In this document: positions 2,847-64,000 of the stretch, piece by piece
How positions within the stretch are numbered: the stretch's first letter is position 1
How the letters are laid out: each line of letters begins with the position of its first letter
Assembly (NCBI GenBank): GCA_035292445.1
Contig: DATDQB010000020.1
Coordinates: 27,484 to 91,483, forward strand
Source of the DNA: Candidatus Omnitrophota bacterium
GTDB taxonomy: Bacteria; Omnitrophota; Gorgyraeia; Zapsychrales; Zapsychraceae
Length of the DNA stretch: 64,000 nt
Direction: 5' to 3'
Made by a program: the position numbers and the translations under genes
Notes under the pieces: generated by a model
Seen by the model: the letters and a program-made list of their open reading frames with translations, nothing else
Told to the model about the DNA's origin: nothing
Databases searched by the model: none

Positions 2847-3610
2847 GGCTTCTCTTTCTGCATTTTATCCTTCACCCACGCCAAACAAGAAAGGTATAGA
2901 AAACGCGTATTGCCGAAAATATATCTTTTCCATAACCGTTGCGGCTCGCTCAAAAGCCTAAATAACCATTCCAAACCGGCCCGCTGCATCCAACGGGGAG
3001 CCTGCTTCTTTACGCCGGCGATAAAATCAAAAGCGGCGCCCACCCCGATCATCACGGGGACATCCAGTTTATCACGATGATGGAACATCCAGTATTCCTG
3101 TTTAGGGGCCCCCAGCCCGACCCATAGGATATCGGCTGAGGCATTATTGATCATCGTCAGGATCGGTGCATCTTCCGGCTCGTTCTTGTCCCGAAAAGGC
3201 GGCGCCCAATGGCCGACGATATTTATCTTGGGGAATTGGGATCTTAATTGTTGCGCCAGACGTTGATTGTTCTCCTGTGTCCCCCCGTAGAAGAAATGCC
3301 GGTACCCCCTCGCCTGTCCTTTTTCACATAAAGCCAGCATCAGATCCGGACCATAGGTACGGCCGATGGCTTTCTCCCCCCGCCATTTGCCCACCCACAC
3401 AAGGGGCATACCATCGGGCGTGACCATCCCCGCCTCATTAATGATCTGCCTGAATTGCTCATCATCCTGGGATTCAATGACCGTTGCTACGGGGGCAACG
3501 CACACATAAGTCTTAAAGCGTTGGCTGATCCACCCGTCAATGGTTTGGCAGGCCTGCTCTAAATTGGTGACCGATACACGGACGCCTAAAATGTCGAGGA
3601 TTTGGGACAT
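2843..3610 (-). CDS. WecB/TagA/CpsF-family glycosyltransferase (N-acetylmannosaminyl-type transferase)
   Basis: 255 aa with the family signature ILWVGLGAPKQEYWM. Its start codon overlaps the stop of the upstream sugar transferase. Confidence 0.8.
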   Translation of the reverse strand: MSQILDILGVRVSVTNLEQACQTIDGWISQRFKTYVCVAPVATVIESQDDEQFRQIINEAGMVTPDGMPLVWVGKWRGEKAIGRTYGPDLMLALCEKGQARGYRHFFYGGTQENNQRLAQQLRSQFPKINIVGHWAPPFRDKNEPEDAPILTMINNASADILWVGLGAPKQEYWMFHHRDKLDVPVMIGVGAAFDFIAGVKKQAPRWMQRAGLEWLFRLLSEPQRLWKRYIFGNTRFLYLSCLAWVKDKMQKEKP

Positions 3611-34613: not shown

Positions 34614-35393
34614 CTATTTCCTTACAGGAATCCCCTGCTTTTCCATATCTTCTTTACATGTCATCGGTGTAATGCTCGTAAAATGAAAGATGCTGGCAGC
34701 GGATACGGCCGAGGCCCCTTGTTGGATCGCGGCACTGCAATCACTGGGGCTCGCCGCTCCTCCCGCCACAATTAAAGGAATATCCCTGACGATGGAGGCC
34801 GCATACCGGATCAGATCCAGATCGTACCCGCTCATTTTTCCGTCCAGATCCACGTTATTGAGCAATATCTCCCCGACTTTACAATATTCCATCAATATTT
34901 TAAGGACCTCTTCAAAGGTATAGCGGATCTCACGCCCCGCATGGGAATACAACTTATACTGGCCATCCTCCCCTTTTCGAACATCGATGGATGCGACAAT
35001 GCATTGGCTTCCAAAGACCTCGACCGCCTGTTTGACGACATCAATGTCGTCAAAAATAATCGTGTTCAGCGATACTTTATCCGCTCCCGCCTCCAACGCG
35101 TTGGCGATGTCTTGGCAGGACCTTAAACCACCCCCTACAGTTAACGGCATAAAACAATGGTCCGCAACAGTTGAAACGGTATGCAGGTCAATGCCCCGAC
35201 CCTTTTTGGAGGCGTCGATATCCAGTAAGATCAACTCATCAATGTTACGGTTGTTATACACCCTGGCCACCGTTATCGGATTGCCCAGATTGCGACGGAC
35301 ATCGAACTGGATCGTTTTAACGACGGAATAACCGTCCAACAGGACAAGCGGTATGACGCGGTGGCGCAACATGATCAATATTTCCCCTTGCAA
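34614..35393 (-). CDS. HisF-like cyclase subunit (imidazole-glycerol-phosphate-synthase-like; acetamidino-sugar amidotransferase component), copy 1
   Basis: 259 aa. RVIPLVLLDGYSVVKTIQF...DELILLDIDAS...PLTVGGGLRS is present. Confidence 0.8.
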   Translation of the reverse strand: MQGEILIMLRHRVIPLVLLDGYSVVKTIQFDVRRNLGNPITVARVYNNRNIDELILLDIDASKKGRGIDLHTVSTVADHCFMPLTVGGGLRSCQDIANALEAGADKVSLNTIIFDDIDVVKQAVEVFGSQCIVASIDVRKGEDGQYKLYSHAGREIRYTFEEVLKILMEYCKVGEILLNNVDLDGKMSGYDLDLIRYAASIVRDIPLIVAGGAASPSDCSAAIQQGASAVSAASIFHFTSITPMTCKEDMEKQGIPVRK

Positions 35394-35986
35394 AAATTTT
35401 CAAGTAACTTAAGCCCGGCCTTTTGGCTTTTCTCCGGATGGAATTGAAAACCTAAAATGTTCTCCTTTTGGACGCCGGCAATAAAATCCTTCCCGTAATG
35501 GCAGGTGGCCGTTTGGACCTTTTCATCGGGAACGAATTCGTAACTGTGCACGAAATAAAAACACGGGGCGGCCGGCATGTTATCAAATACAGGAAAATTG
35601 CCAAAACTCACATCATTCCATCCTATGTGGGGCAGCTTGACGCCGTTAAGGCTATGGCGCAAATGGGACACCCTTCCTTTAATAAGGTCCAACCCTTCGC
35701 TTGGCCCGCCTTCTTCCCCTTGGCTGGCGAGCAGTTGCATCCCCAAACAAATGCCCAAAATGGGTGTCTTATCTTCGATAACTCTTTTTCTGATGGCCTC
35801 ACGCAATCCCGTCGATTTTAAACGGCTTGAACCTTCGGCAAAACTTCCGACACCAGGCAAGATCATCTTTTCACAATTAATGACGTCTTCAAGACGATCC
35901 GACACTTTATGTTCCACGTTCAAGAACTTGAGCGCACGGCTGACGCTGGCAATATTGCTGATCTTTAGATCGATGACCGTGATCAT
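35375..35986 (-). CDS. HisH-like glutamine amidotransferase subunit
   Basis: 203 aa with a GATase1 fold (ILGICLGMQLL). It forms a pair with the HisF-like gene. Confidence 0.8.
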   Translation of the reverse strand: MITVIDLKISNIASVSRALKFLNVEHKVSDRLEDVINCEKMILPGVGSFAEGSSRLKSTGLREAIRKRVIEDKTPILGICLGMQLLASQGEEGGPSEGLDLIKGRVSHLRHSLNGVKLPHIGWNDVSFGNFPVFDNMPAAPCFYFVHSYEFVPDEKVQTATCHYGKDFIAGVQKENILGFQFHPEKSQKAGLKLLENFCKGKY

Positions 35987-37915: not shown

Positions 37916-37997
37916 ATTGTCTCCCGTCATTCTTTTTTTCTATTCTGACGAGGCTCGCCCGCCAAAATTAATTTATTTTGGCGAGGCGGCCTATTAT

Positions 37998-43539: not shown

Positions 43540-44781
43540 TTAGTTCTCCTTATCCCCATAGACCGTATGCCGCAATTTCCATTGCCCGCCCTCTTTGCGC
43601 CAAAGGTGAGGTGAGCGGAATTCATCACATAATTCATGAAACCGTGCTTGGTCCATGCCGATATGCCCCATAACCTCTTTAAAATATTTTTCCGGGAACT
43701 CCCCGTCAAAACGTTTGACGAGCGCGATCCCTTCTTCACGGGAAATATGCCTATTACGGATCTCTTGCGAAGCATCATATGTTGCACGCCCAATACCGAA
43801 CTTTATATACGTTGTGTAATAGTGAAACCCGTCAATTTTATCGTCCAAGCTGTTATATTTGCTGTATGTCCCTTCGGAACGGACAGGGTTTGCCTGAAAT
43901 CCCGCATTTTCAACCGAATAATAATACGCCTCTTGAGGCGTCCACTTCAAATAGTAGCCCAAGTAATGCACCTCTATTTTATGCTGTTCGATTTCTCTAT
44001 AATCCGCGGGCAAATATATTTTTATTTCGTGATCGCTTAGGCCATATTTTTCCTTTAATTCACGAACGGAAACCCCGCTGATAAATAGCTCTTCATAACG
44101 ATTGGCCGAATAATAGGATTTATCGCGCAACGATGTTTGGTTATCCGCGAAAGGATTCCCGTATTCCGACTCATTTTCCCCGTAAAATATAAGCGGGATA
44201 TTAAATTTTATAGCGATCTTGGGTGCTAAGTTCTTTTGGCCTAAAATGAACGGCTGAAAGGGATGCAGGAGGTTCTCGATCGCCAGGCGTGTTAATAACG
44301 TGTGCACGCTCCCATTATAATTAAAAGAAATATTATCGAATCCCCCCTTATCAATCCAGTTCCGGAAGTTCTTGTACCCGACATCTGTATAAAGGATCGG
44401 CGGCCACGTAACCGTTAAGGGATGCATGCCATATTTTGTTTTCAGGACATGGGACTGTAAGATACTGTCTTTCCCCCCGCTTCCTGGGACAATGCAGTCA
44501 TATTCTCCGTCATGGCGGCGGTACTTATCGCACAACGCCTGCAATTCCATCTCCCGCTGCTTCCAATCAATTGTTTCTTTTATATCCGCATAACGGCACG
44601 CATCACAGATGCCATCGTCACCGATCCTGATGGTTGAGTGGGCCTTATTGACGGCGTGTTTAAATTCGATCGAAGAAGACGGCCGCTGATTGGAGATGAC
44701 GCATCGCTTGCAGAACTTCACCTCTTTAGGCAACCCATATTTTACTTCCAACTCTTCTTTTATATTCTCTTGAACGCCCAT
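43540..44781 (-). CDS. N-acetyl sugar amidotransferase (PP-loop family), copy 2
   Basis: 413 aa. It has a zinc ribbon (CKRC...CDAC) and the PP-loop IVPGSGGKDS. It is a paralog of 35983-37179. Confidence 0.8.
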   Translation of the reverse strand: MGVQENIKEELEVKYGLPKEVKFCKRCVISNQRPSSSIEFKHAVNKAHSTIRIGDDGICDACRYADIKETIDWKQREMELQALCDKYRRHDGEYDCIVPGSGGKDSILQSHVLKTKYGMHPLTVTWPPILYTDVGYKNFRNWIDKGGFDNISFNYNGSVHTLLTRLAIENLLHPFQPFILGQKNLAPKIAIKFNIPLIFYGENESEYGNPFADNQTSLRDKSYYSANRYEELFISGVSVRELKEKYGLSDHEIKIYLPADYREIEQHKIEVHYLGYYLKWTPQEAYYYSVENAGFQANPVRSEGTYSKYNSLDDKIDGFHYYTTYIKFGIGRATYDASQEIRNRHISREEGIALVKRFDGEFPEKYFKEVMGHIGMDQARFHELCDEFRSPHLWRKEGGQWKLRHTVYGDKEN

Positions 44782-44826
44782 TGAATCATTCCTCTCTAAA
44801 TCATAACAGCCAAGTTAGAATGAAAA

Positions 44827-44961
44827 TTCCAAGAAACAAGATACAATAACCAAACAATCATCAATAAACAAATTCCAAATTCAAAACCGACCCAAGTTTG
44901 GTCTATTTGGTTATTGTTATTTGGGTATTGTTTGTTTCTTGTACCTTGGTTATTGGTTATT
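44827..44961. repeat. Imperfect palindromic intergenic repeat element, copy A (about 135 nt)
   Basis: Left arm ttccaagaaacaagatacaataaccaaacaat...ccaaattcaaaaccgacc. Right arm ggtctatttggttattg...tttgtttcttgtaccttgg. The arms are mutually reverse-complementary (caagaaacaa against ttgtttcttg). It shares words (aacaagataca, ccaaattcaaaa, tcttgtaccttgg) with the element at 53499-53635. Confidence 0.55.
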
Positions 44962-44982
44962 TCACGCATAGTATTGTTTGAC

Positions 44983-45867
44983 TTATACAGCCTTCGTCAA
45001 TTCCCCGCTGTCAGCGGTTTTATGCCGGCATGAAATGCCCTGCTTGGTCAGGTATTCCTTAATGGTGGCCAAACTTGCTTTTTCCAATTTTGACGAAAAT
45101 TTCCCTTTTTTCAGGAATTCAACGTTGCCTTCACCCTGATAATCGGATTCAAAGCTGTGGTTCTCGATAAATTCATAATGGATCATTGAAGCCAGACTGA
45201 CGGCATCGGCCTTGCCCTCAGTAATAACTTCCTTAATATGTTCCAATTTGCCGGCGCCGCCGTTGGCGATGACCGGAACGGAAACATTCTCTGAGATCAT
45301 TTTTGTAAGGGCTATGTCATAGCCTTGCCCGGTCCCCTCCCGGTCTACGGAGGTGACCATGATCTCACCGGCCCCCAGGCCAACAGCTTCCTGCGCCCAT
45401 TCAAAGGCGTCCCTGCCCGTATATTCACGGCCGTTATCCGTGTAAACCAGATACCGCCCATCCGGCTGCTTAATGGCTTCTATAGAGACTAATATCGTTG
45501 AAGAACCAAAAACCCGCGCTGCTTCCGTGATCAGCGATGGATTATTGACCGCTGCCGTGTTCAAAGACACCTTATCCGCCCCGGCCCTTAAGACAGCGCG
45601 GATATCCTCAATACTTCGCAAGCCCCCGCCTACGGTAAGCGGTATGAACGATTCCCTGGCTGTGCGCTCAACAATATCCAGCAAATTATTACGCCCATAC
45701 AAACTCGCGACCACGTCCATATAAATAAGTTCGTCAGCGCCATTCTCATAATAGAATCTTGAGAAATTCTCGGGCTTTCCCAGCACACGCAAGCCTTCTA
45801 AGTGAATGCCCTTCACTAAATTAGGCCCTTTGATATCCATCCTGGCTATGACACGAATGTTCTTCAT
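44983..45867 (-). CDS. HisF-like cyclase subunit, copy 2 (C-terminally extended)
   Basis: 294 aa. IRVIARMDIKGPNLVKGIHLEG...DELIYMDVVAS...PLTVGGGLRS is present. No adjacent HisH partner is visible. Confidence 0.75.
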   Translation of the reverse strand: MKNIRVIARMDIKGPNLVKGIHLEGLRVLGKPENFSRFYYENGADELIYMDVVASLYGRNNLLDIVERTARESFIPLTVGGGLRSIEDIRAVLRAGADKVSLNTAAVNNPSLITEAARVFGSSTILVSIEAIKQPDGRYLVYTDNGREYTGRDAFEWAQEAVGLGAGEIMVTSVDREGTGQGYDIALTKMISENVSVPVIANGGAGKLEHIKEVITEGKADAVSLASMIHYEFIENHSFESDYQGEGNVEFLKKGKFSSKLEKASLATIKEYLTKQGISCRHKTADSGELTKAV

Positions 45868-47057
45868 GAGAACCTTAGATCATAAAATTGTTTTTTTAAT
45901 AAATGTTGTGCGATCTTAGTGCTTTTGATCTTATCCTTGATGCGCCTGCTTACTTTTCCGTCGCGATACCGTTCATAAGGATTGGGCTTGCGGCTGATGC
46001 GCCTTGCGAACGGCTTCGATAATCCCTTTTTGATACCTGCGAGTATCCCGGATTTCGTGCCTTGGACATCGATCACATTAGTGCCGCGCACGCGCCCCTT
46101 TTGACGGTCCCCGATATTGACCACCGGAATCCCGAACGATGCCGCCTCGATGATCCCGCTCGATGAATTTCCGACCATGATATCGCAATGCTGCAGGCAG
46201 CTCATATAACGCAACTGCCCCAAACTATCGAATAATCTGTTATTTCGTCCATTTTGCAGGCAAAACTTTTTAATTGTCTCATTGATCGACCGTCCGCCCA
46301 TATCAGCATTTGCCTTTGTAAAGATCGCACGCATGTTCGTCTGTTTAAGCGCGGAACAGATGCCTTTGATCTGGGCGGCCGGCGATTTGCCGTTCAGCGT
46401 CTCGGGATGGAACGTCACCAAAGCCGTCGGCCTGCTCAGATCCATTCGAAGCTCACGGGCCAATTCCCGTTTGTTCAATAATTTCTGCTTATGGACCACA
46501 TCCAACCCCGGCGCCCCGAAATTGAAAACCGATTCCGGTCGCTCTCCCATTTGAATGACGCGCTTTCGGTAATCCTCTGTAGAAACGAAATGAAGTGTTG
46601 CCATCTTGGTTATGGAATGGCGGATCCCTTCGTCAACAACCCCTTGCGTTGATTCTCCCCCATGAATATGCGCAATGGGGATCCGCGCCATATATGCGGC
46701 GATGGCCGAAGACAGGATCTCGAAGCGATCCCCTAAAAGAACGACCCAGTCAGGTTTTAACCGAAAGAACGCTTTGGCAAACAACCGGCATCCCAACCCT
46801 ATAGACTCCGTTACTCCCAAAGAAGTATCATCAAAACGCAACACATTGACTTTTTCATCGATATCAAACCCGTCTTTCAGGATAGTCTTATAGGTCATTC
46901 CGTGCTCTTTTGATAGATGCATCCCGGATACAACAAGCTGAAGCTTCAATGCCTTGTCCTTCTTGACTTCCTTTAAGAACTCATAGAGAAGGCCATAATC
47001 AGCCCTTGAGCCGGTGACCACACAGATCTTTTTACGTTTTAAGCGAGTTGTTCCCAT
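45864..47057 (-). CDS. UDP-N-acetylglucosamine 2-epimerase, hydrolysing type (NeuC/LegG family)
   Basis: 397 aa. The NeuC N-terminal signature is ICVVTGSRADYGLLYEFLKEV...QLVVSGMHL. Confidence 0.85.
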   Translation of the reverse strand: MGTTRLKRKKICVVTGSRADYGLLYEFLKEVKKDKALKLQLVVSGMHLSKEHGMTYKTILKDGFDIDEKVNVLRFDDTSLGVTESIGLGCRLFAKAFFRLKPDWVVLLGDRFEILSSAIAAYMARIPIAHIHGGESTQGVVDEGIRHSITKMATLHFVSTEDYRKRVIQMGERPESVFNFGAPGLDVVHKQKLLNKRELARELRMDLSRPTALVTFHPETLNGKSPAAQIKGICSALKQTNMRAIFTKANADMGGRSINETIKKFCLQNGRNNRLFDSLGQLRYMSCLQHCDIMVGNSSSGIIEAASFGIPVVNIGDRQKGRVRGTNVIDVQGTKSGILAGIKKGLSKPFARRISRKPNPYERYRDGKVSRRIKDKIKSTKIAQHLLKKQFYDLRFS

Positions 47058-48136
47058 TTGATAACGGAGTCCTCCGGGATCCTTCTTTGTACTATTCTGC
47101 CGACGACACGATTGATATCCTTAGGAGCGATGCCTGTGCCCGGTCTTTTCACCACAATATCCCGGTCTGTGATCATCTGTCCTTTTTTCAGCCCATGTAC
47201 CGCGACCAGGCTTTTGCGGGCGATATTCCTATTCTTCATTTCACATGCTGCCGCAGATTTAATGCCGTTTCCCAAACTTAACGTCACATGGCGGATCATA
47301 CGAACCATTTTTTTGAATTCATCCGGCTCCATGGACGCCTTGTGATCTGGTCCCCTCATAACGCGGTCCAACGTGATATGTTTCTCGATGACGCGGGCAC
47401 CCAAAGCGACCGCGGCCACCGCCACTTCAACTCCCAGCGTATGGTCTGAGTATCCTACGGGCAGCTTAAATTGCTTTTCCAAGCTCAACATGGCTTTCAA
47501 GTTCACATCCTTGTACGGGGCCGGATATTCGCTGACACAATGCAGCAAAATGATCTTTGTATTTCCCGCTTTCCTGATGATCTGGACCGCTTCTTGTACT
47601 TCATCCATATTGGACATCCCCGTTGAGAGGATCATTTCCTTCTTTTTCTTGGCGATATATTCTAAGAGCAGTAAATGGGTCAGATCGCCCGAGGAGATCT
47701 TATAGACCTGCACTTTTAAACGCTCCAACAGATCAACGCTTTCAAAATCGAAAGGTGTCGACAAAAAAAGGATCTTCCTCTTTTTGCAATGGTCCTTTAA
47801 TTCTTTAAAACCCTCGAAAGGCAATTCCAATTTTCTAATCAGATCATACTGATCGCGGATATCCGCACCTACATTCCTTCTTTGATAATCCGCCAATTTT
47901 GTTCTTCTCGATAACAGATTCTGTGCCTTGAACGTTTGAAACTTTATACCGTCCGCCCCCGCATTTTTTGCAGCGTCAATAAGCTGTTTGGCAATCTTCA
48001 TATTTCCGTTATGATTGACGCCTGCTTCGGCAATAATAAAAACGTGATTACTGGATAATAGACGCGATGTCACTAACAGCTCCTTTTCGGCGGGCCGGTG
48101 TCCCCCAATATGTGCCCGCTTCTTTGCAATCATCAA
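47039..48136 (-). CDS. NeuB-family nonulosonic acid synthase, copy 2
   Basis: About 365 aa. VFIIAEAGVNHNGNMKIAKQLIDAAKNAGADGIKFQTF is present. The track start is a TTG codon, and the true start is probably further in, to limit overlap with the upstream acetyltransferase. Confidence 0.85.
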   Translation of the reverse strand: MMIAKKRAHIGGHRPAEKELLVTSRLLSSNHVFIIAEAGVNHNGNMKIAKQLIDAAKNAGADGIKFQTFKAQNLLSRRTKLADYQRRNVGADIRDQYDLIRKLELPFEGFKELKDHCKKRKILFLSTPFDFESVDLLERLKVQVYKISSGDLTHLLLLEYIAKKKKEMILSTGMSNMDEVQEAVQIIRKAGNTKIILLHCVSEYPAPYKDVNLKAMLSLEKQFKLPVGYSDHTLGVEVAVAAVALGARVIEKHITLDRVMRGPDHKASMEPDEFKKMVRMIRHVTLSLGNGIKSAAACEMKNRNIARKSLVAVHGLKKGQMITDRDIVVKRPGTGIAPKDINRVVGRIVQRRIPEDSVIKWEQLA

Positions 48137-48716
48137 CCACCGTAGCCCCCGCTCCTATAAGACATCCTGGCGCGATCCTTTTGCCGACGATGACCGTACT
48201 GCCGGGGCCTATCAGAGACCCTTGCCCTATAAATACCCCTCCGCATAACGTCACGCCGGGCGCAACATGAACATGGTCTTCGATAACGCAATCGTGATCG
48301 ACCGATGATGTTGTATTAATAATGGCATTGTTGCCTATGCGACTGCCCGGGCCTATGATAACGCCTGCCGCGATAAATACGCCGCGGCCTAACTGCGCAT
48401 TACCGGATACGACCGCGCTCGGATGGATCACGTTAGGAAAACCAAAACCGATTCGCTGCACATCCTGGAAAAGGCTTTGGCGCGTTTTGTTATCCACCAC
48501 AGACCCAACGCAAATAAAAGCGTACCGATAGCCTTGGTCGAATAATGCCTGTAAGTCCTCATCACGGCCTAGAACAGGGACCCCGTCAACTGACTCTCCT
48601 TTGGTGAATAAAGGATCGGTAATGCCTGCGATCTCATATTGCCCGCTACTTTTTATCGCGTCGATAACAACACGGCAATGACCTCCCCCTCCTATTAATA
48701 AGACTTTGTCTTTCAT
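48048..48716 (-). CDS. NeuD/PglD-family hexapeptide-repeat sugar N/O-acetyltransferase
   Basis: 222 aa. It has an N-terminal Rossmann-like KVLLIGGGGHCRVVIDAI and C-terminal left-handed beta-helix hexapeptide repeats (IGPGSRIGNNAIINTTS...). Confidence 0.8.
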   Translation of the reverse strand: MKDKVLLIGGGGHCRVVIDAIKSSGQYEIAGITDPLFTKGESVDGVPVLGRDEDLQALFDQGYRYAFICVGSVVDNKTRQSLFQDVQRIGFGFPNVIHPSAVVSGNAQLGRGVFIAAGVIIGPGSRIGNNAIINTTSSVDHDCVIEDHVHVAPGVTLCGGVFIGQGSLIGPGSTVIVGKRIAPGCLIGAGATVVDDCKEAGTYWGTPARRKGAVSDIASIIQ

Positions 48717-49816
48717 GTACTGACCTTGGCCTTCTTTAAGATCTCACACACATATTCAATATCTTCATTTGTATTCAACGTTGAACTGGGCAAACATAGG
48801 CCGCGTTCATAGATCTCTTGGGCAACAGCATATTCCGCCTTGGCAAAACGCTGGTACGGCGGGAATGACGTCACCGGCATGAATATTCTTCGTGATTGGA
48901 TCCCCGCCAGTTCTAACTGCTTTTGGGTCTCTTGGACATCGGTCTCAGCATCAAAGAGAGCGCACGTCAACCAAAATGAAGGTTGGGTTTGAGGGTAAGC
49001 TTCTTGGAACACGATCGAACCCAAAGAAGAAAGGCGCCGACGATAGATATCATTAAACGCCTTTTTCTGCTGAAGGAATTGTTCAAAACTCTCCATTTGG
49101 GCGAGCCCTAACGCGGCCTGGATATTCGTCATGCGATAATTAAAACCTATTTCCGAATAATAATGGTCCCCTTCCAGATCCCGCGCTTGATTGACCAGGC
49201 ATCTGATGTGCCGGCTTCGCTTCTCCTGGGCGCTCACGACCATGCCTCCGCTTGCGGTCGTCATCGTTTTATTGCCGTTAAAGCTGAAACATCCGAAATC
49301 CCCGAACGTTCCCACATGGGCTCCCTTATAGGTCGCGCCTAGCGCTTCCGTCGCGTCCTCAACGACAAAAAGGTCATTTTCCTTCGCAATGTCCATGATC
49401 TCATCCATCGCGCAGGGATTGCCGTAAAGATGCACCGGAATGATGGCCTTTGTTCTTTCGGTGATGTTCTTACGGATCTCTTTAGGATCGATATTCCATG
49501 TCTTTGGGTCGACATCCACAAAAACAGGTGTGGCGCCGCAATACATAACGGGGTTGACCGTCGCAATGAACGTTAACGCGGGTACGATCACTTCATCGCC
49601 GGGCCCGATGCCAAGCTCGTGTAAAGATATGTGCAGCGCCGCCGTGCCGCTTTGCGTGGCTACGCCATAAGGCGAGCCTAAACGATGGGCGAGTGTGTCC
49701 TCAAATGTCTTTACAAATGTTCCCACGGAAGACACGTACCCGCTGTCAATGGCCTCATTGACATATTTTTTTTCTGTTGCCCCGACACGGGGCGCGTCTA
49801 AATATATTTTTTTCAT
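48713..49816 (-). CDS. DegT-family PLP-dependent sugar aminotransferase (LegC/PglE-like)
   Basis: 367 aa. The catalytic Lys is in FSFNGNKTMTTASGG. Confidence 0.85.
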   Translation of the reverse strand: MKKIYLDAPRVGATEKKYVNEAIDSGYVSSVGTFVKTFEDTLAHRLGSPYGVATQSGTAALHISLHELGIGPGDEVIVPALTFIATVNPVMYCGATPVFVDVDPKTWNIDPKEIRKNITERTKAIIPVHLYGNPCAMDEIMDIAKENDLFVVEDATEALGATYKGAHVGTFGDFGCFSFNGNKTMTTASGGMVVSAQEKRSRHIRCLVNQARDLEGDHYYSEIGFNYRMTNIQAALGLAQMESFEQFLQQKKAFNDIYRRRLSSLGSIVFQEAYPQTQPSFWLTCALFDAETDVQETQKQLELAGIQSRRIFMPVTSFPPYQRFAKAEYAVAQEIYERGLCLPSSTLNTNEDIEYVCEILKKAKVST

Positions 49817-49834
49817 TGGGTCGGCCTATTGCTT

Positions 49835-50908
49835 TTATACACGGTCGAGTTCCTCAACACTTCTTCGGTATTCTTCCCATTGCCCGACATCGATCCAGGA
49901 CTTCTCGCTGATCGGGAAAACAGACACTTTGCCGCCGGATTTTCTTACCCTTTCGATCAGATCCGTCATATGAAACACTTTATTGCGAGGGATGTAGGTA
50001 AGGGCCTTTTGGCTCAGGACATACATCCCGGTGCTGACCAAATAATCAAAAGAAGGCTTTTCCTGTAACTTGCTCAGCTCTCCCCCGTCATTGATCTCAC
50101 AGATCCCGTAAGGGACGACAAAGTGCCGCATGGAACCCACCAGCGTGATATCATTCCCGTTTTCCTGGTGGAACTTGACTAGTTCGCTGTAATCGCAATC
50201 GATGATAATGTCGCAATTCGTGACAAGGACGTCGCTATGCACCGTATTCAAGAGTTTTGTCAGGCACCCAGCTGTTCCCAGCGGTTTTCTTTCAATGAGA
50301 TATTCGATCTGATACTTGGGCTCTAATTCTTCGAAATAGGCCTTGATGATCTTCGATTTGTAGTTCAACGAGATGTAAAATTTTTTCACGCCGAATTCGC
50401 GTAACTTACCGATGATTATCTCGATGATCGGCTTTCCCTTAATGGGGATGAGCGGCTTAGGCAAAATTTCTGTGAACGGCGCCAGCCGCGTCCCGCTGCC
50501 GCCCGCCATGACCACGACCGGGACATTCAATTTCCGTTGATGGCGTTTCTTTGCCCCGTTAAAGACCGCATCCCACACCAGCACATCGACGATATTTCTA
50601 TTGGCGTCAATGACAGGATAGCAGTCTATTTTCTCTTTAAGCATCGCCTTCTTGACGTCTTCCAAATCATAATTCTCGCCAAATACGCGCGGTTTATTGT
50701 TATAGATCTCCTTGACCCCGCTTGAGACTTTACCGTTGGAGAGCACCCACCGGCGCACATCCCCATCCGTTACCGTGCCCAGTAAACGCTGCTTCTCATC
50801 GACCACGAATGCGATGCGCTTTGAATTATTATCCATGACGCGCATGGCTTCTTTGATGCTCGTTAGTTCCGTAATGAGAAATTTTTCAAGACTCTTTGAC
50901 ATATCCAT
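49835..50908 (-). CDS. CBS-pair domain fused to sugar-1-phosphate nucleotidyltransferase (PtmE-like)
   Basis: 357 aa. An N-terminal CBS pair is followed by VVVMAGGSGTRLAPFTEILPKPLIPIKGKPII. This is the same architecture as the GlcNAc-1-P guanylyltransferase of the C. jejuni legionaminic acid pathway. Confidence 0.7.
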   Translation of the reverse strand: MDMSKSLEKFLITELTSIKEAMRVMDNNSKRIAFVVDEKQRLLGTVTDGDVRRWVLSNGKVSSGVKEIYNNKPRVFGENYDLEDVKKAMLKEKIDCYPVIDANRNIVDVLVWDAVFNGAKKRHQRKLNVPVVVMAGGSGTRLAPFTEILPKPLIPIKGKPIIEIIIGKLREFGVKKFYISLNYKSKIIKAYFEELEPKYQIEYLIERKPLGTAGCLTKLLNTVHSDVLVTNCDIIIDCDYSELVKFHQENGNDITLVGSMRHFVVPYGICEINDGGELSKLQEKPSFDYLVSTGMYVLSQKALTYIPRNKVFHMTDLIERVRKSGGKVSVFPISEKSWIDVGQWEEYRRSVEELDRV

Positions 50909-50909
50909 T

Positions 50910-52766
50910 TTAAACTCCTATCAATTCGCCGCTTGCCGCATATAAATGCTGGTGCAGCCTCTGTTGCGCCTGGCCGTCGCAATAACGGTCGATATATTTT
51001 TTTACATACGCATCCTGGTATTCCTTGAATTCCTCTTCACTGCATTCATGAAGCCAATAGTGGGCGGCTTGCTTGAGCTGGTCATATCCTCTCACGCAAA
51101 ACTTTGGCATCTTGAATACGTCGAACACGGCCTGGTCAAACCTGTCTGATGTGACCTGACAGACCGCTCTTACGCCGCCAACGAGCGCTTCCTGGGTGGC
51201 GCTCGAATTAAAACCGCCGATCACCAGATCAAATATTCCCATAAAATCAAAACTCGCATAATGGGGCGCTTTTTCATTCGCAAAAATGACCCGCTCATGG
51301 CTGATGAGCTTCTTGAATTCAGCGTTCAACTCCTTGCTCTGCTCTATCGCATCCTGGCTTCTTGTCTTGAATATGAAAAAATACTGTTCGTGCTCTTGGA
51401 TGAAACGGTATGCATCGCGATAGCTCGCAATACCTTCCTCCAAATTAAAAAACCCGGCCCTTCCTATCGCCGTATCAAAAAACCCTATCAATTTTCTATC
51501 GAGCGGGACGCCGAATTCCCTTTTCAGCCGATCCTTACGTGCAGGATCATGCTTAGTCTCATAAATGATATCGGAGGGGTACGTGCCTGTATCAACATAA
51601 TTCTCGATGCAGTTCCTTGATCTTGAAAAATTATTGAGCGAAATAAAGTTTGAAAAGATGGTGCCGTAGACCGTATAACTGTAATACAAGTCAATGGGCA
51701 AACTCATATCTTCCCTGTAAACATAATCAAAACTCGCCGATTTGTAGACAAACACGGTTTGAGAACCATGCCTTTCCTGTATCAAGGTGCGCGAGACGCT
51801 CCCCGGGTCCTGAACAGCGATGAATTTCTCAACCCTGTACTTCTCGAAAAACATTCCCCATTCGATGAAATCCTTGATGGTCTTCAGATAAACCCTTAAC
51901 ACACCGAGCTTAGGCTTTTGAACCGACCGGAAAAGTGTTTGTAGGTGCTTGATCCCGGGAAGTATATTCTTTCGATAGACTTCCTGACTGAAATTTCTCG
52001 TCATTTCCTTGAAATAACATTGGTCGAACCCGTTCCCCGAAAGCCTCTCCAGAACCGGCGCCGACATCTTTCTGTCCATGACATAAAGCGTGTCCTTTTG
52101 ATCAACGCCCGTTTCAGGATGGATAAACTCAAGCTTGTTGATGTTCTTTTTCAGATCGATCCCGCTATCGAACATGAGTGCTGCATTCTTGTATTCTTTT
52201 ACTGCATATTTGGTTTCTTTGCCCTTCATGGTAAATTGCAAAATGGTTGGATAGAATTTTATCCCCATTCGGTAAACGAAGCTGGTTTTCAGTTCCTGCT
52301 GATACATCGCGTTAAGGTACCATGCGGGTATCGTAAAGCAATCCGGCAAGAAGCCTTTCTTTTCGGCCAAGATCTTGTAGATCGAATAATAAAATGGCTT
52401 CGGTATGAAATGTATCTTCTCTTTAATGTTGTGTTTCTTGACAAATTCGACGGCGAACGCAAAAGAGATCATAAGATCGGCCAACTGGGCAACGATCTCC
52501 TTTTGCATAAAGTTCTTCGCCCGAGGATCGGCAAAGGCGCGTATCAGGGCTTCTTCCTGTTCTTGCGTCACATAGTCCCGGTAAAACCAATCCATGGCTT
52601 TGGCCGCTTGAGAGCGCACAACATAGCGCTGGGTCAGATCAAATAGATCGCATTCAAGCAAGGTCGCATTGCGGCAATCCCCCTCTGCAACATAAAGGGA
52701 ACTATAGCCCTTGCATCTTGAAGGCTTATATTGAGCCGCGTGTTCTAATAAACAGACTTTTGACAT
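50910..52766 (-). CDS. Large hypothetical protein with a GT-B-like C-terminal region; paralog of 23563-25530 (candidate nonulosonate or other group transferase)
   Basis: 618 aa. The C-terminal LVIGGFNSSATQEALVGGV pattern and the N-terminal KEKIHFIPKPFYYS block are shared with the 655-aa ORF. Confidence 0.4.
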   Translation of the reverse strand: MSKVCLLEHAAQYKPSRCKGYSSLYVAEGDCRNATLLECDLFDLTQRYVVRSQAAKAMDWFYRDYVTQEQEEALIRAFADPRAKNFMQKEIVAQLADLMISFAFAVEFVKKHNIKEKIHFIPKPFYYSIYKILAEKKGFLPDCFTIPAWYLNAMYQQELKTSFVYRMGIKFYPTILQFTMKGKETKYAVKEYKNAALMFDSGIDLKKNINKLEFIHPETGVDQKDTLYVMDRKMSAPVLERLSGNGFDQCYFKEMTRNFSQEVYRKNILPGIKHLQTLFRSVQKPKLGVLRVYLKTIKDFIEWGMFFEKYRVEKFIAVQDPGSVSRTLIQERHGSQTVFVYKSASFDYVYREDMSLPIDLYYSYTVYGTIFSNFISLNNFSRSRNCIENYVDTGTYPSDIIYETKHDPARKDRLKREFGVPLDRKLIGFFDTAIGRAGFFNLEEGIASYRDAYRFIQEHEQYFFIFKTRSQDAIEQSKELNAEFKKLISHERVIFANEKAPHYASFDFMGIFDLVIGGFNSSATQEALVGGVRAVCQVTSDRFDQAVFDVFKMPKFCVRGYDQLKQAAHYWLHECSEEEFKEYQDAYVKKYIDRYCDGQAQQRLHQHLYAASGELIGV

Positions 52767-53473
52767 TTCTTCTCTTCCAGGTATTGCAGGGCGATCGCCA
52801 GATCGCCGCTCGTGTCAATATCAACGGATGACTTTTCATCCATGATAAAAGGCAATATATGCTTGTTGTGGTCCTGTAAATGGCACATGATCTCTGACGA
52901 GCCTAAGTAAATGGCCCCGTTAGGCAAATAATATGTATCTAAACCTTGGCGTTGCCGTTTCGTCAGGGCTTCATCAAAACAGAATTCAATATACCCGGCA
53001 TCATTCGTTCTCATCAGCCAGGCCGTCTTCTGAGGGGCTCGCGTGACAGAGATCAGATGATCTTTTTCTGTTTTTTTGTGCCGAAAATAATGCTCGATCG
53101 CCTGATCGATCTCTTTAGCTGACCTTAACGGCGACGTTGGCTGAAGAAGGACAATATAATCATATTGGCAATGCTCGTTCTCCTTGAGCCAGTTGACACA
53201 ATGCTCAATGGCGTGCTCGATCAATGATTCATCCTGGGCGAGTTGCGCCGGCCTTAAGAACGGAACGTCCGCACCGCCCTGACGAGCAATAGCGGCAATG
53301 GCTTCACTGTCCGTCGAAACAATGGTCCGGTCAATGTATTGGGAACCCTTGGCCGCCTCGATCGTCCAGCGGATCAACGATTTGCCACCAAGATCGGCAA
53401 GGTTCTTGTTCTTTAAACCCTTGGACCCGGCTCTTGCCCCAATGAACGCCAATATATTCTTCTTATTGAACAT
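52745..53473 (-). CDS. Acylneuraminate (nonulosonate) cytidylyltransferase, CMP-sugar synthetase, copy 2
   Basis: 242 aa. ILAFIGARAGSKGLKNKN...LLQPTSPLRS is present. Confidence 0.8.
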   Translation of the reverse strand: MFNKKNILAFIGARAGSKGLKNKNLADLGGKSLIRWTIEAAKGSQYIDRTIVSTDSEAIAAIARQGGADVPFLRPAQLAQDESLIEHAIEHCVNWLKENEHCQYDYIVLLQPTSPLRSAKEIDQAIEHYFRHKKTEKDHLISVTRAPQKTAWLMRTNDAGYIEFCFDEALTKRQRQGLDTYYLPNGAIYLGSSEIMCHLQDHNKHILPFIMDEKSSVDIDTSGDLAIALQYLEEKKCQKSVY

Positions 53474-53498
53474 TTCTTAATTGTCCTAATTATCCTTT

Positions 53499-53635
53499 AA
53501 GGTACAAGATAACAAGATACAAGTTCCAAACAAATCCCAAGCACCAAATTCAAAATAACAAACGGTCCGATAGGAATATTTGTTTGAAATTTGGGATTTG
53601 GAGTTTGTTTGTACCTTGTTTCTTGTATCTTGGAA
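53499..53635. repeat. Imperfect palindromic intergenic repeat element, copy B (about 137 nt)
   Basis: Left arm aaggtacaagataacaagatacaagttccaaacaaatcccaagcaccaaattcaaaataacaaacggtcc. Right arm gtttgaaatttgggatttggagtttgtttgtaccttgtttcttgtatcttggaa. The arms are reverse-complementary around the centre ggtccgatagg. It is related to copy A at 44827-44961. Confidence 0.55.
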
Positions 53636-53660
53636 TTTCATATTTCTATTTGATATTCTC

Positions 53661-55253
53661 TTATAATGGTTTCGCTTCTTTTTCTATAGGGGCATTGACC
53701 TTTTTATTGACCATATTGAAAGATGGCCCTGAAACGGCCAACGGCCTTGTCAACGCGTCCGCATCACCCCAATGTTTGCGGGTCTGCTCCAATAACCGCA
53801 GGTCCCTTTGCATGACAATTTGCTGTAAACCCAACAATTGCGCCGGTGAAAATTTATGGGAGATCGTTGCGGTGATCCGGGACGCATCCCCCAGGTCTTT
53901 GACAAAGGCCTCGAGATCGCCGGCATATTGCTGAAGGATCGAATCCTTATACGCGTAGTACCATTCCGATCCCGGATAAGGTGTTGCAAAGTGCGGCTTG
54001 GTATGGATGCCCAGTTTGATCAGGCATTCAATGGTCGTTTTCACACTTTCAAACGATTCCTGGGGAAAACCGATAATGATATTAGGGATGGGGATGATAC
54101 CCGATTCCATGCATATCTTCGGCGCCTCAAGATTGTTCTGTTGATTAACGCCCTTGCCTAAATTCTTAAGAATAAAGGGATCAAAGGACTCGATCCCGTA
54201 AACAAGGTGAGAGCAACCCGACTTATACATAAGGTCCAATAACTCTTTATTCGCCAAACTCGCGTGGCTTGTTCCCGACCAAAATACACCGCCTTTGTTC
54301 TCCTCATCGGGCGTCCCGTCCCGCCGGGAACTCGGTTGAAGCCCCTCTTTGATCCATAGATCACAAAGTTCCTGCAACCAGGATCTTTGTCCGGTGCGGC
54401 GGCTCGTCACATCCATCGTCATAAGGTTCTCATCGATAAAATTGATAAAATCGATCTGATATTTTTTCACTAACGTTTTGACCATATCCACGATATAGCG
54501 CGGGCTGTGGTAGCGGATATTGCGCCCGTACGTAAAACGCACGTCATTCTCGCCATGCTCGTTCTTTTCGATCACCATGTCGCCGGTCGTCCCCAAATGC
54601 CAGCAGAATTTGCAGACCAAACCGCATCCTAAACTGCCCATAATATCTATCCGCCTTTTTGAGCAGAAAGCGGCCTCGCTAAAGAGCAGCTGTGAATTCT
54701 TGAAATAGATCTCCAGAGGAAGCAGGTCCCAGGCCGGATAAGGCAACACATCCATGTCCTTGATATTTGGCCGGACCGGCGTTAGAACGCCCTTTTTATT
54801 CTTGTCCCGGTAACAGATGCCCAACGTATTTGTAAAATCATGGTCGTTCTTACCGATCTTATCGAGGATCTCGGGCCATGTAACGAACGATTCCCCCATA
54901 AGGCCCAGATCGATCTCGGGCAGCCATTCCATCATCTCTTTGGGCATACTGGTAAAGAACCCGCCGCCGGCAACAATAAATGACTTGGGGGAAATTTGCT
55001 TGCAGATCTTAAGCGTTCTCTTGATCGAGCCATACGTCGTTGTCAATCCGCCGATCGCGATGACATCCCAATCATCCGCGGCGCAGACCTTTTTCATCAT
55101 TTCCGGCCCCTTGCGCCAGGCGTTCTCGTCATAGATCTGGACTTGATGCCCCTTTTCGACCGCAATGCTGGCCAACAAACTTATCCCATAAGGGATGTGT
55201 TTTGGGTCATCTTCCTCCCTCACAATAGGATTGATCATCAATACTTTGGCCAT
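53661..55253 (-). CDS. B12-binding domain / radical SAM protein, copy 3
   Basis: 530 aa. It has an N-terminal B12-domain-like AKVLMINPIVRE...PYGISLLASIAV and a canonical cluster SLGCGLVCKFC (Cx3Cx2C). Confidence 0.8.
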   Translation of the reverse strand: MAKVLMINPIVREEDDPKHIPYGISLLASIAVEKGHQVQIYDENAWRKGPEMMKKVCAADDWDVIAIGGLTTTYGSIKRTLKICKQISPKSFIVAGGGFFTSMPKEMMEWLPEIDLGLMGESFVTWPEILDKIGKNDHDFTNTLGICYRDKNKKGVLTPVRPNIKDMDVLPYPAWDLLPLEIYFKNSQLLFSEAAFCSKRRIDIMGSLGCGLVCKFCWHLGTTGDMVIEKNEHGENDVRFTYGRNIRYHSPRYIVDMVKTLVKKYQIDFINFIDENLMTMDVTSRRTGQRSWLQELCDLWIKEGLQPSSRRDGTPDEENKGGVFWSGTSHASLANKELLDLMYKSGCSHLVYGIESFDPFILKNLGKGVNQQNNLEAPKICMESGIIPIPNIIIGFPQESFESVKTTIECLIKLGIHTKPHFATPYPGSEWYYAYKDSILQQYAGDLEAFVKDLGDASRITATISHKFSPAQLLGLQQIVMQRDLRLLEQTRKHWGDADALTRPLAVSGPSFNMVNKKVNAPIEKEAKPL

Positions 55254-56508: not shown

Positions 56509-56551
56509 AAATCAGAAGGAAATGAGCGAGGCTCGCCCCAACGGGGCGGCC

Positions 56552-63736: not shown

Positions 63737-64000
63737 AACATAACTTGTCCACCATTGACTCTGATGGTCTCTCCTGTTAAAAAATCCGATTTCTCTGAGG
63801 CCAGAAAACTGATAGTCCCGGCAATGTCCTGCGCCGTTGCGATCCTCCCCAGGGGAGTTTGCGCCTCGGTCAACAATCGAACCCTCTCGGGTATATTGGC
63901 AATCAACTCCGTATCTGTCATTCCGGGGGACACCAAGTTTACCCGGATCCCCTTTGGCGCCAATTCAAGAGCCAAAGCCTTGGTGAATCCGTGCAAGCCT
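63733..64000 (-). CDS. Short-chain dehydrogenase/reductase (FabG-like 3-oxoacyl-ACP reductase), C-terminal fragment; gene continues past window end
   Basis: The SDR C-terminus is ALELAPKGIRVNLVSPGMTDTEL...GETIRVNGG. The ORF is open to the window edge. Confidence 0.7.
   Translation of the reverse strand, partial: GLHGFTKALALELAPKGIRVNLVSPGMTDTELIANIPERVRLLTEAQTPLGRIATAQDIAGTISFLASEKSDFLTGETIRVNGGQVML

Follow-up and report, generated by a model that had tools for sequence, protein, structure and literature searches.

Intervening sequences (IVSs) of ribosomal RNA (rRNA) and their S23p open reading frame (ORF) have been known since the early 1990s. The IVS of Coxiella burnetii is a 428-nt selfish element in the 23S rRNA, which is bounded by terminal inverted repeats, carries an S23p ORF, contains three or four tandem heptamers GACAGAT in strain-variable number, and is cleaved by RNase III in its stem (PMC4990558). 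As far as the summary given in that article goes, RNase III cleavage has also been shown for IVSs of Salmonella, Leptospira, and alphaproteobacteria (PMC4990558), and S23p ORFs have been noted in rRNA insertions of the Candidate Phyla Radiation (CPR) (PMC11270868). The origin and spread of rRNA IVSs with their S23p ORF, and the function of the encoded protein, are not understood (PMC4990558). Proteins of the PF05635/TIGR02436 families, referred to as 23S rRNA intervening-sequence protein, S23p, or four-helix-bundle protein, are related in the literature to the Avd protein of diversity-generating retroelements (DGRs). In this study, we analyzed two palindromes, A and B, located in 64,000 nucleotides of Candidatus Omnitrophota bacterium DNA (contig DATDQB010000020.1; this whole stretch is called the window below), and we favor, with moderate confidence, the view that both belong, as gene-less miniatures, to a widespread family of selfish hairpin cassettes of the IVS type.

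The palindromes A (44821-44964) and B (53499-53638) are real, imperfect, and about 140 nt long. Read on the plus strand, they comprise the following parts:

44821-44884, plus-strand reading: CAA arm of A (exact pattern at 44837-44871; arm profile at 44824-44882, E = 3.8e-7)
44885-44904: apical loop of A, sequence aaccgacccaagtttggtct
44905-44964, plus-strand reading: TTG arm of A (pattern at 44914-44948 on the minus strand; profile E = 1.4e-5)
53497-53562, plus-strand reading: CAA arm of B (pattern at 53513-53547; profile at 53503-53559, E = 5e-8)
53563-53577: apical loop of B
53578-53641, plus-strand reading: TTG arm of B (pattern at 53591-53625 on the minus strand; profile E = 3.7e-9)

Each arm is built from eight or nine heptamers of the form nnnnCAA, mirrored as TTGnnnn in the partner arm, with one short unit that creates an invariant CAAACAA and a sharp outer end, AAAwwCCAA. 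The CAA arm of A, for example, reads AAAATTCCAA GAAACAA GATACAA TAACCAA ACAA TCATCAA TAAACAA ATTCCAA ATTCAA on the plus strand and becomes the 3' UUG arm of the minus-strand transcript. The exact string CAA-N4-CAA-N4-CAAACAA-N4-CAA-N4-CAA occurs in all four arms, far beyond chance, with 0.00 matches expected from shuffled sequences; a scan of the 64 kb for CAA/TTG at period 7 returned A and B as the sole places, and an arm profile derived exclusively from other genomes matched the window four times, at the four A and B arms (E = 4e-9 to 1e-5). The two 60-nt arms of A (44821-44880 and 44905-44964, with 24 nt between them) are 73% complementary, and the 47-nt core arms of B (53512-53558 and 53580-53626, within the profile-defined ends 53499-53638) are 77% complementary. 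The minus-strand RNA is predicted to fold with -44.6 kcal/mol (z = -3.75) for A and -50.8 kcal/mol (z = -5.2) for B, into long imperfect hairpins whose stems have about 31% G+C and whose loops of 15-24 nt hold no PF05635 ORF. Since A and B are only about 68% identical, their likeness reflects a shared architecture and not a recent local duplication; the DNA of both is found, 100% identical, in four independent assemblies.

A preliminary description of the window, made from its letters alone, had already reported two related elements of about 140 nt with reverse-complementary arms, quoted sequence words shared by them, placed both between co-directional genes, and expected long imperfect hairpins on the minus-strand transcript, all of which our data bear out, the hairpins as predicted folds. 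The short GC centre that it noted exists as well; however, it is merely the variable loop, and the heptamer arms, the essential feature, had been missed. No Rfam 15 family matched the 64-kb window at gathering thresholds, a permissive Rfam scan of A returned only sub-threshold look-alikes of plant miRNA precursors (23 bits against a threshold of 211), and neither tRNA or tmRNA genes nor rRNA were detected in the window. A 57-aa ORF called by ENA within A (L001 9813-9986, corresponding to window positions ~44796-44969) has no Pfam match and is almost certainly spurious, which illustrates an annotation hazard, as gene callers place spurious small ORFs inside heptamer arms.

Hairpins of the same architecture are widespread in bacteria and absent from Rfam. 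A pattern scan of one genome per species yielded at least 120 loci, and the counts in the remainder of this paragraph, as well as the phyla, refer to the matches listed. These come from Omnitrophota, Patescibacteria, Acidobacteriota, Aminicenantes, Desulfobacterota, Planctomycetota, Verrucomicrobiota, Bacteroidota/Ignavibacteria, Chloroflexota, and others, more than ten phyla in all, and comprise, with the window excluded, at least 68 palindromes of the type CAA arm, loop, TTG arm, 42 solitary arms, and 19 (CAACAAA)n microsatellites. Fifty-five of the 57 palindromes having two callable flanks are intergenic. When A and B are included, the 70 palindromes, whose genomic contexts were called with a crude ORF caller, divide into 41 between co-directional, nine between convergent, and seven between divergent genes, two apparently intragenic cases, and 11 at contig ends; the spacers are usually filled by the elements. 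In the logo of 126 arms from other genomes, the outer AA is conserved at 91% and 87%, is followed by wwCCAA, and borders on random sequence; this boundary lies outside the search pattern. The N4 part of the units draws on a restricted vocabulary (ATTC, ATCC, GATA, GCAC, TAAC, and others), and the order of parts is fixed: outer end, three units, CAAACAA, and three or four further units. The solitary arms are half elements with no partner within 260 nt (for example, L015 3875-3930, L016 4962-5017, and L016 7917-7972), and those between co-directional genes carry CAA on the sense strand 15 times and TTG five times. The (CAACAAA)n microsatellites of Cyanobacteria and Bacteroidota (L005, L011, L012, L019, L030, L099, L105, and L122) are unrelated to the family.

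The polarity of the arms is strict, as 46 of 47 pairs of adjacent arms begin with the CAA arm, and the apical loops of the relatives range from 3 to about 200 nt and vary in sequence. Viral contigs contained the search pattern in 120 cases, of which six were arm-like by profile and none was palindromic; the viral matches are thus attributable to chance, and phages as carriers were rejected. A literature search by sequence strings, with subscription literature outside its scope, retrieved unrelated primer matches only and no description of the family. We describe it, with priority uncertain, as a branch of the IVS-type elements that is intergenic and for the most part gene-less and has heptamer arms conserved in sequence; it supplies a candidate new Rfam or repeat family.

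The main clue to the family was a full-length member on the same contig. The contig was followed 10 kb past the right end of the window, and the arm profile from other genomes, applied to this extension, located a third copy about 8 kb beyond window position 64000 (L130; ENA ERZ27254861 k141_2874523), with the following parts in the coordinates of that locus:

1290-1954: full-length cassette
1290-1354: CAA arm
1380-1892: S23p gene, 170 aa
1891-1954: TTG arm

The encoded 170-aa protein belongs to PF05635 (23S_rRNA_IVP, E = 1e-15) and TIGR02436 (four helix bundle protein, E = 2e-21), and its best match among solved structures is PDB 2rld, an entry with five chains. The outer end of this cassette is identical to the outer 20 nt of the TTG arm of A (CTTGGTTATTGGTTATTTCA). 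The full-length layout thus consists of about eight nnnnCAA heptamers, a PF05635/TIGR02436 gene of about 120-170 aa, and the mirror TTGnnnn arm. The arms also bracket a PF05635 ORF in a Bacteroidales metagenome-assembled genome (MAG; L049) and surround a degraded 78-aa PF05635 remnant in an Acidobacteriota MAG (L075). In the reverse test, 80 metagenomic loci were picked solely because they encode a relative of the L130 protein (41-71% identity); 37 of them have both arms in the right place and orientation, with CAA directly upstream and TTG directly downstream, a further 17 have one arm, six of these having lost the other flank to a contig end, and only five arms are wrongly oriented. Most of the loci without an arm match show degenerate or variant heptamer arms, such as nnnCTAA. 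Gene-bearing and gene-less palindromes stand side by side in the same S23p loci. The fold predicted for the L130 cassette (-170.7 kcal/mol, z = -4.6) has the arms paired as a basal stem that encloses the ORF. The S23p start codon ATG lies inside the inner arm unit tgacCAA, the protein beginning MTKIQNSKP...YDLEERT, and the mirror sequence TTGgtcaTTG would sequester the AUG in the stem.

Several S23p cassettes show further peculiarities. About 14 consecutive gataCAA units precede the S23p gene in L131 (~2060-2200), which indicates that single units expand by slippage. In L133, the TTG arm of the cassette (2888-2947) ends 10 nt before a tmRNA gene (2957-3384). Both arms of the cassette in L170 (~430-962) are interrupted by short G+C-rich palindromes, for example gacctgcctgcagcaggcaggg, which look like a second small element nested in the arms, and similar G+C-rich inserts fill the loops in L117 and L097. 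Other arrays, namely TTCGATG (period 7), GATACAG (period 7), GAGCGTCG (period 8), and TGGTCTGTC (period 9), flank PF05635 genes that belong to other subfamilies, at L114 1264-1428, 1838-1920, 3886-3958, 4082-4141, and 4520-4626 and at L009 5184-5700; some of these arrays are direct and not inverted. This suggests that bracketing by repeats is general to the PF05635 family, with repeats specific to each subfamily. A large CRISPR-discovery screen names '23S rRNA IVP' among proteins associated with CRISPR-like arrays (PMC10910872), and the short tandem repeats bracketing S23p genes probably explain this as a false association.

The family is also linked to rRNA IVSs directly. In L061 (4575-4708; uncultured bacterium MJ110830A_bin-153), a gene-less relative forms a 154-nt insertion in the apical loop of a hairpin of the large-subunit (LSU) rRNA, at LSU model positions ~139-143, which we take to be helix 9, where IVSs are documented. 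A gap-free alignment of its arms with the arms of A, B, and the cassette has 74% mean column identity. The presence of a family member in a 23S rRNA hairpin loop marks these elements as the same kind as classical IVSs. A and B themselves lie outside rRNA, between protein-coding genes, and are therefore not rRNA IVSs; likewise, no rRNA was found near the S23p cassettes in the 20 loci checked.

The resemblance to rRNA IVSs extends to the terminal inverted repeats, which form a long stem around a variable interior in A, B, and the cassette, to the optional passenger gene of PF05635 (present in the IVSs of C. burnetii and Leptospira, and lacking in many classical IVSs), to the size of about 100-150 nt of ORF-less forms (such as those in helix 25/45 of Salmonella and helix 9 of alphaproteobacteria), and to a patchy distribution across phyla. 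Tandem heptamers at the boundary of stem and ORF are shared with Coxiella only, where the unit is GACAGAT instead of nnnnCAA. In contrast to rRNA IVSs, A, B, and almost all relatives found sit in spacers between protein-coding genes, and their arms share primary sequence (nnnnCAA, the CAAACAA core, and the AAAwwCCAA end), for which we found no description; furthermore, RNase III excision would be a prediction by analogy for the A/B family.

Repetitive extragenic palindromic (REP) sequences, their doublets (REPINs), and the associated transposases (RAYTs) offer a second parallel, since they too are short, imperfect, intergenic palindromes, in which gene-less doublets far outnumber the gene bracketed by two inverted copies, and whose copies are more alike within than between genomes. 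Here, however, the product of the bracketed gene is not a HUH/Y1 transposase but a four-helix-bundle protein that lacks any known catalytic motif, the arms comprise about 60 nt of heptamers compared to 20-35 nt in REPs, and the density is low (three copies in 84 kb). No RAYT (TnpA_REP) gene was found flanked by the repeats, the arm-flanked gene being PF05635, and RAYTs were not sought in the rest of the genome. Miniature inverted-repeat transposable elements (MITEs), to which the preliminary description had likened A and B, are similar in length (about 140 bp), terminal inverted repeats, intergenic position, and the appearance of a non-autonomous form of a longer gene-bearing element. This part of the comparison holds, as the two elements look like non-autonomous miniatures of a gene-carrying cassette; the remainder does not, because target-site duplications and a known transposase are lacking and the copies, in the 84 kb of this genome that were read, are 68-75% identical (about 74% for the arms) and not near-identical. 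The search for further copies that it had recommended did succeed, with the third copy beyond the window and the palindromic relatives in other phyla described above.

Heptanucleotide repeats, including the short tandemly repeated repetitive (STRR) sequences of cyanobacteria and the TAACTGA repeats of Beggiatoaceae, Cyanobacteria, and Bacteroidetes, share with our elements the period of 7, the intergenic location, often near start codons, the patchy cross-phylum spread suggestive of transfer, and a suspected nucleic-acid-binding reader (PMC4679880). They are direct repeats of one unit, whereas the units described here vary around a fixed CAA and form arrays that face each other head to head in a fixed polarity, have defined ends, and are tied to a single gene family. 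As regards Avd of DGRs, the cassette protein falls into an Avd-related family and has the five-chain entry 2rld as its best structural match; in contrast to DGRs, neither a reverse transcriptase nor template or variable repeats were found in the cassette neighborhood, and the PADLOC defense models gave no match to the S23p protein.

We propose that A and B would be transcribed together with the minus-strand glycan-biosynthesis operon in which they lie. The C/A-rich 5' arm, unable to fold on itself, would emerge first and wait for the G/U-rich 3' arm, with which it would pair into an imperfect hairpin having a stem of about 55-60 nt. RNase III could then cut this stem, as it does in IVSs, and the cleavage would separate the upstream and downstream cistrons while leaving duplex-protected ends, so that the insertion would be nearly harmless to the host and able to persist. 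In gene-bearing copies, the fold would limit S23p translation to the time before the 3' arm is transcribed. Among the functions that the preliminary description had considered, RNA processing would be the most plausible effect of A and B, because one family member resides in rRNA and RNase III cuts out the IVS of Coxiella (PMC4990558).

Several results weigh against this proposal. Complementarity amounts to 76.5% between an arm and its own partner, barely above the 74.4% between it and arms of other genomes or phyla, and among sense-strand mismatches 89 are of the G.U type and 78 of the A.C type, with transversion mismatches dominant (287), that is, with no wobble bias. Because own and foreign arms hardly differ and wobble pairs are not enriched, the conserved entity appears to be the heptamer sequence and not the helix, which leaves room for a protein that reads RNA or DNA. 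As to mobility, target-site duplications, which the preliminary description had proposed to look for, were not detected: in 68 elements with profile-defined ends, direct repeats of 2-8 nt were no commoner than in shuffled pairings. Neither a known transposase nor a known nuclease is present, and the 84 kb read of this genome contain only three copies. These copies are old, with identities of about 68-74% within this genome, whose six arms are about 74% alike; over the whole family, arm identity is only modestly higher within genomes (0.76) than between them (0.69; p = 1e-15). S23p remnants were looked for in the longer loops of gene-less elements and not found (all E > 0.7), and L075 is the only intermediate; gene-less elements may derive from gene-bearing ones by deletion, or the gene could have entered pre-existing hairpins instead. 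Finally, RNase III cleavage of A and B is proposed solely by analogy with IVSs, and their selfish nature and spread are inferred as well.

Sequence conservation without pairing conservation is also what would be expected if the heptamers served at the DNA level, as iterated sites in duplex, extruded, or single-stranded DNA for a cooperative binder, either an S23p pentamer or a small repressor-like protein, with the arrays acting as operator, nucleoid, or partition-like sites. The slight arm-to-arm covariation, the lack of wobble bias on the sense strand, the strictly convergent arm polarity, and contexts that, among the matches listed, resemble those of any spacer (41 co-directional, nine convergent, and seven divergent) are consistent with such binding, and precedents exist. 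The omega repressor of pSM19035 cooperatively reads arrays of contiguous 7-bp units, WATCACW, which may be direct or inverted, ACTC boxes separated by 4-bp spacers are bound by ParG, and Avd-family proteins have been described as nucleic-acid binders. The likeness of the omega arrays to A and B is mechanistic only, as the former are plasmid-borne and promoter-linked and no ribbon-helix-helix gene is associated with the elements here. We consider this putative DNA binding, an option that the preliminary description had named as protein-binding palindromes, unlikely, since one member is situated inside a 23S rRNA gene, where the documented fate is at the RNA level, since full-length arms enclose and partly encode the ORF and would sequester its AUG, an arrangement sensible for RNA, and since the solitary arms between co-directional genes favor CAA on the sense strand (15 versus 5). 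If the elements were instead intercistronic REP-like RNA elements, selected by the host to tune cistron stability or translation in the glycan operon and neither selfish nor mobile, one would understand their location between co-directional genes of one operon-like cluster, their stable predicted hairpins, the tightness with which they fill the spacers, and the age and divergence of the copies. We judge this rather improbable, however, because relatives of that gene pair do not share the position, the element adjoins unrelated housekeeping genes in many phyla and is also found in rRNA, it is tightly linked to a specific passenger gene, and the arm pairs do not covary.

Among the units of long simple-sequence repeats, heptamers are stated to be the most frequent in the majority of prokaryotic genomes (Mrazek 2007, as cited in PMC4679880), and unit expansion does occur in the family, as exemplified by the gataCAA copies of L131. 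Both facts might favor functionless products of replication slippage, that is, heptanucleotide microsatellites that came to lie head to head by chance. This explanation is largely refuted by the fixed architecture of sharp end, three units, CAAACAA, and three or four units, by the linkage to one gene family, and by the 46-to-1 polarity; moreover, units differ within an arm, the arms are conserved across phyla, and true (CAACAAA)n microsatellites, which the same pattern also picks up, have a clearly different appearance. We therefore give it very little credence. An equally small chance is assigned to intrinsic terminators or attenuators and to small-RNA genes. A long hairpin between an A-rich and a T-rich flank (AAA...TTT ends) could recall a terminator; however, the stems are AU-rich with neither a G+C-rich base nor a U-tract, A and B are not among the terminator-like sites of 44000-54500, and most relatives, among the matches listed, lie within operon-like gene runs. 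The attenuation site suggested earlier consequently finds no support, as no attenuator or terminator signature is present. Promoter-like sites in the region are fewer than expected by chance, those beside the elements belong to the weakest class (9/12) and were not counted, and no small-RNA family of Rfam exceeds its threshold. CRISPR arrays are ruled out, in agreement with the preliminary description, as the units are 7 nt long and contiguous and the two arrays are inverted, and so are integron attC sites, given that the genes on either side encode operon enzymes and the arm sequences are conserved. Period and context do not seem to fit a Rho rut site or an Hfq/CsrA sponge either.

Within the preferred view of A and B as gene-less IVS-type cassettes, the pentameric S23p protein is the obvious candidate reader of the heptamers. 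We further suggest, very tentatively and as a possibility more doubtful than not, that S23p/Avd-like pentamers of PF05635 are sequence-specific readers of the 7-9-nt repeats that bracket their own genes and thereby constitute an unrecognized class of self-propagating cassettes. If so, the S23p-repeat cassette would be analogous to REPIN-RAYT with a different chemistry, would move between phyla, and would seed both the classical rRNA IVSs and hundreds of gene-less operon-spacer hairpins such as A and B, with a repeat 'dialect' for each protein subfamily (CAA/TTG, CTAA variants, GACAGAT in Coxiella, GATACAG, TGGTCTGTC, and TTCGATG). Irrespective of this suggestion, there is at least one large S23p subfamily that resides mainly outside rRNA, where it forms a compact cassette whose heptamer arms are conserved in sequence. 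It has left behind many gene-less intergenic hairpins in over ten phyla, the little-studied Omnitrophota and CPR among them. A 60-nt arm consensus and a cognate protein of 120-170 aa are now defined and can be used for direct binding or processing tests.

The genes adjoining A and B are as follows:

43540-44781, minus strand: N-acetyl sugar amidotransferase, 413 aa, downstream of A (identical to an NCBI protein from a Candidatus Omnitrophota MAG)
44983-45867, minus strand: HisF-like protein (His_biosynth), upstream of A
52745-53473, minus strand: cytidylyltransferase (CTP_transf_3), downstream of B
53661-55253, minus strand: B12-binding radical SAM enzyme, upstream of B

The spacers of about 190-200 nt between these co-directional minus-strand neighbors (44782-44982 for A and 53474-53660 for B) are mostly filled by the elements; the stop codon of the HisF-like gene lies 19 nt from A, and the start codon of the amidotransferase gene lies 40 nt from its end. 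Every one of the window's 55 ORFs with 150 aa or more is likewise on the minus strand. The number of sizeable spacers, previously given as four, needs correction, since about ten gaps longer than 50 nt separate ORFs of at least 150 aa, several of them holding small genes. In another Omnitrophota genome (L125 9315-10004), a HisH-like glutamine amidotransferase (GATase) gene is interposed between the genes for the HisF-like protein and the amidotransferase, its neighbors joining it with no spacer and with stop and start codons that overlap; in the window, A occupies the position of this GATase gene, and a GATase gene lies elsewhere (35375-35986). Spacer and element are absent from the orthologous gene pairs of L125-L128 (71-76% identity), which are too distant for an empty-site comparison. 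As the genes of L125 abut without a spacer, A is no conserved fixture of that gene pair. A metagenome scan with a 618-aa neighbor for empty or filled orthologous sites returned no relatives.

The window (1-64000) as a whole is one very long cluster for glycan and nonulosonic-acid biosynthesis, with NeuB, UDP-GlcNAc 2-epimerases, several DegT aminotransferases, three B12-radical-SAM enzymes, cytidylyltransferases, Wzy-like proteins, and glycosyltransferases. Two other spacers of the cluster contain the 12-mer CGAGGCTCGCCC (37949-37960 and 56527-56538), in each case beside a small G+C-rich inverted repeat. Two matches compare with 0.27 expected, and three of 100 shuffles reached two; the 12-mer may represent a second spacer motif, unrelated to A and B.

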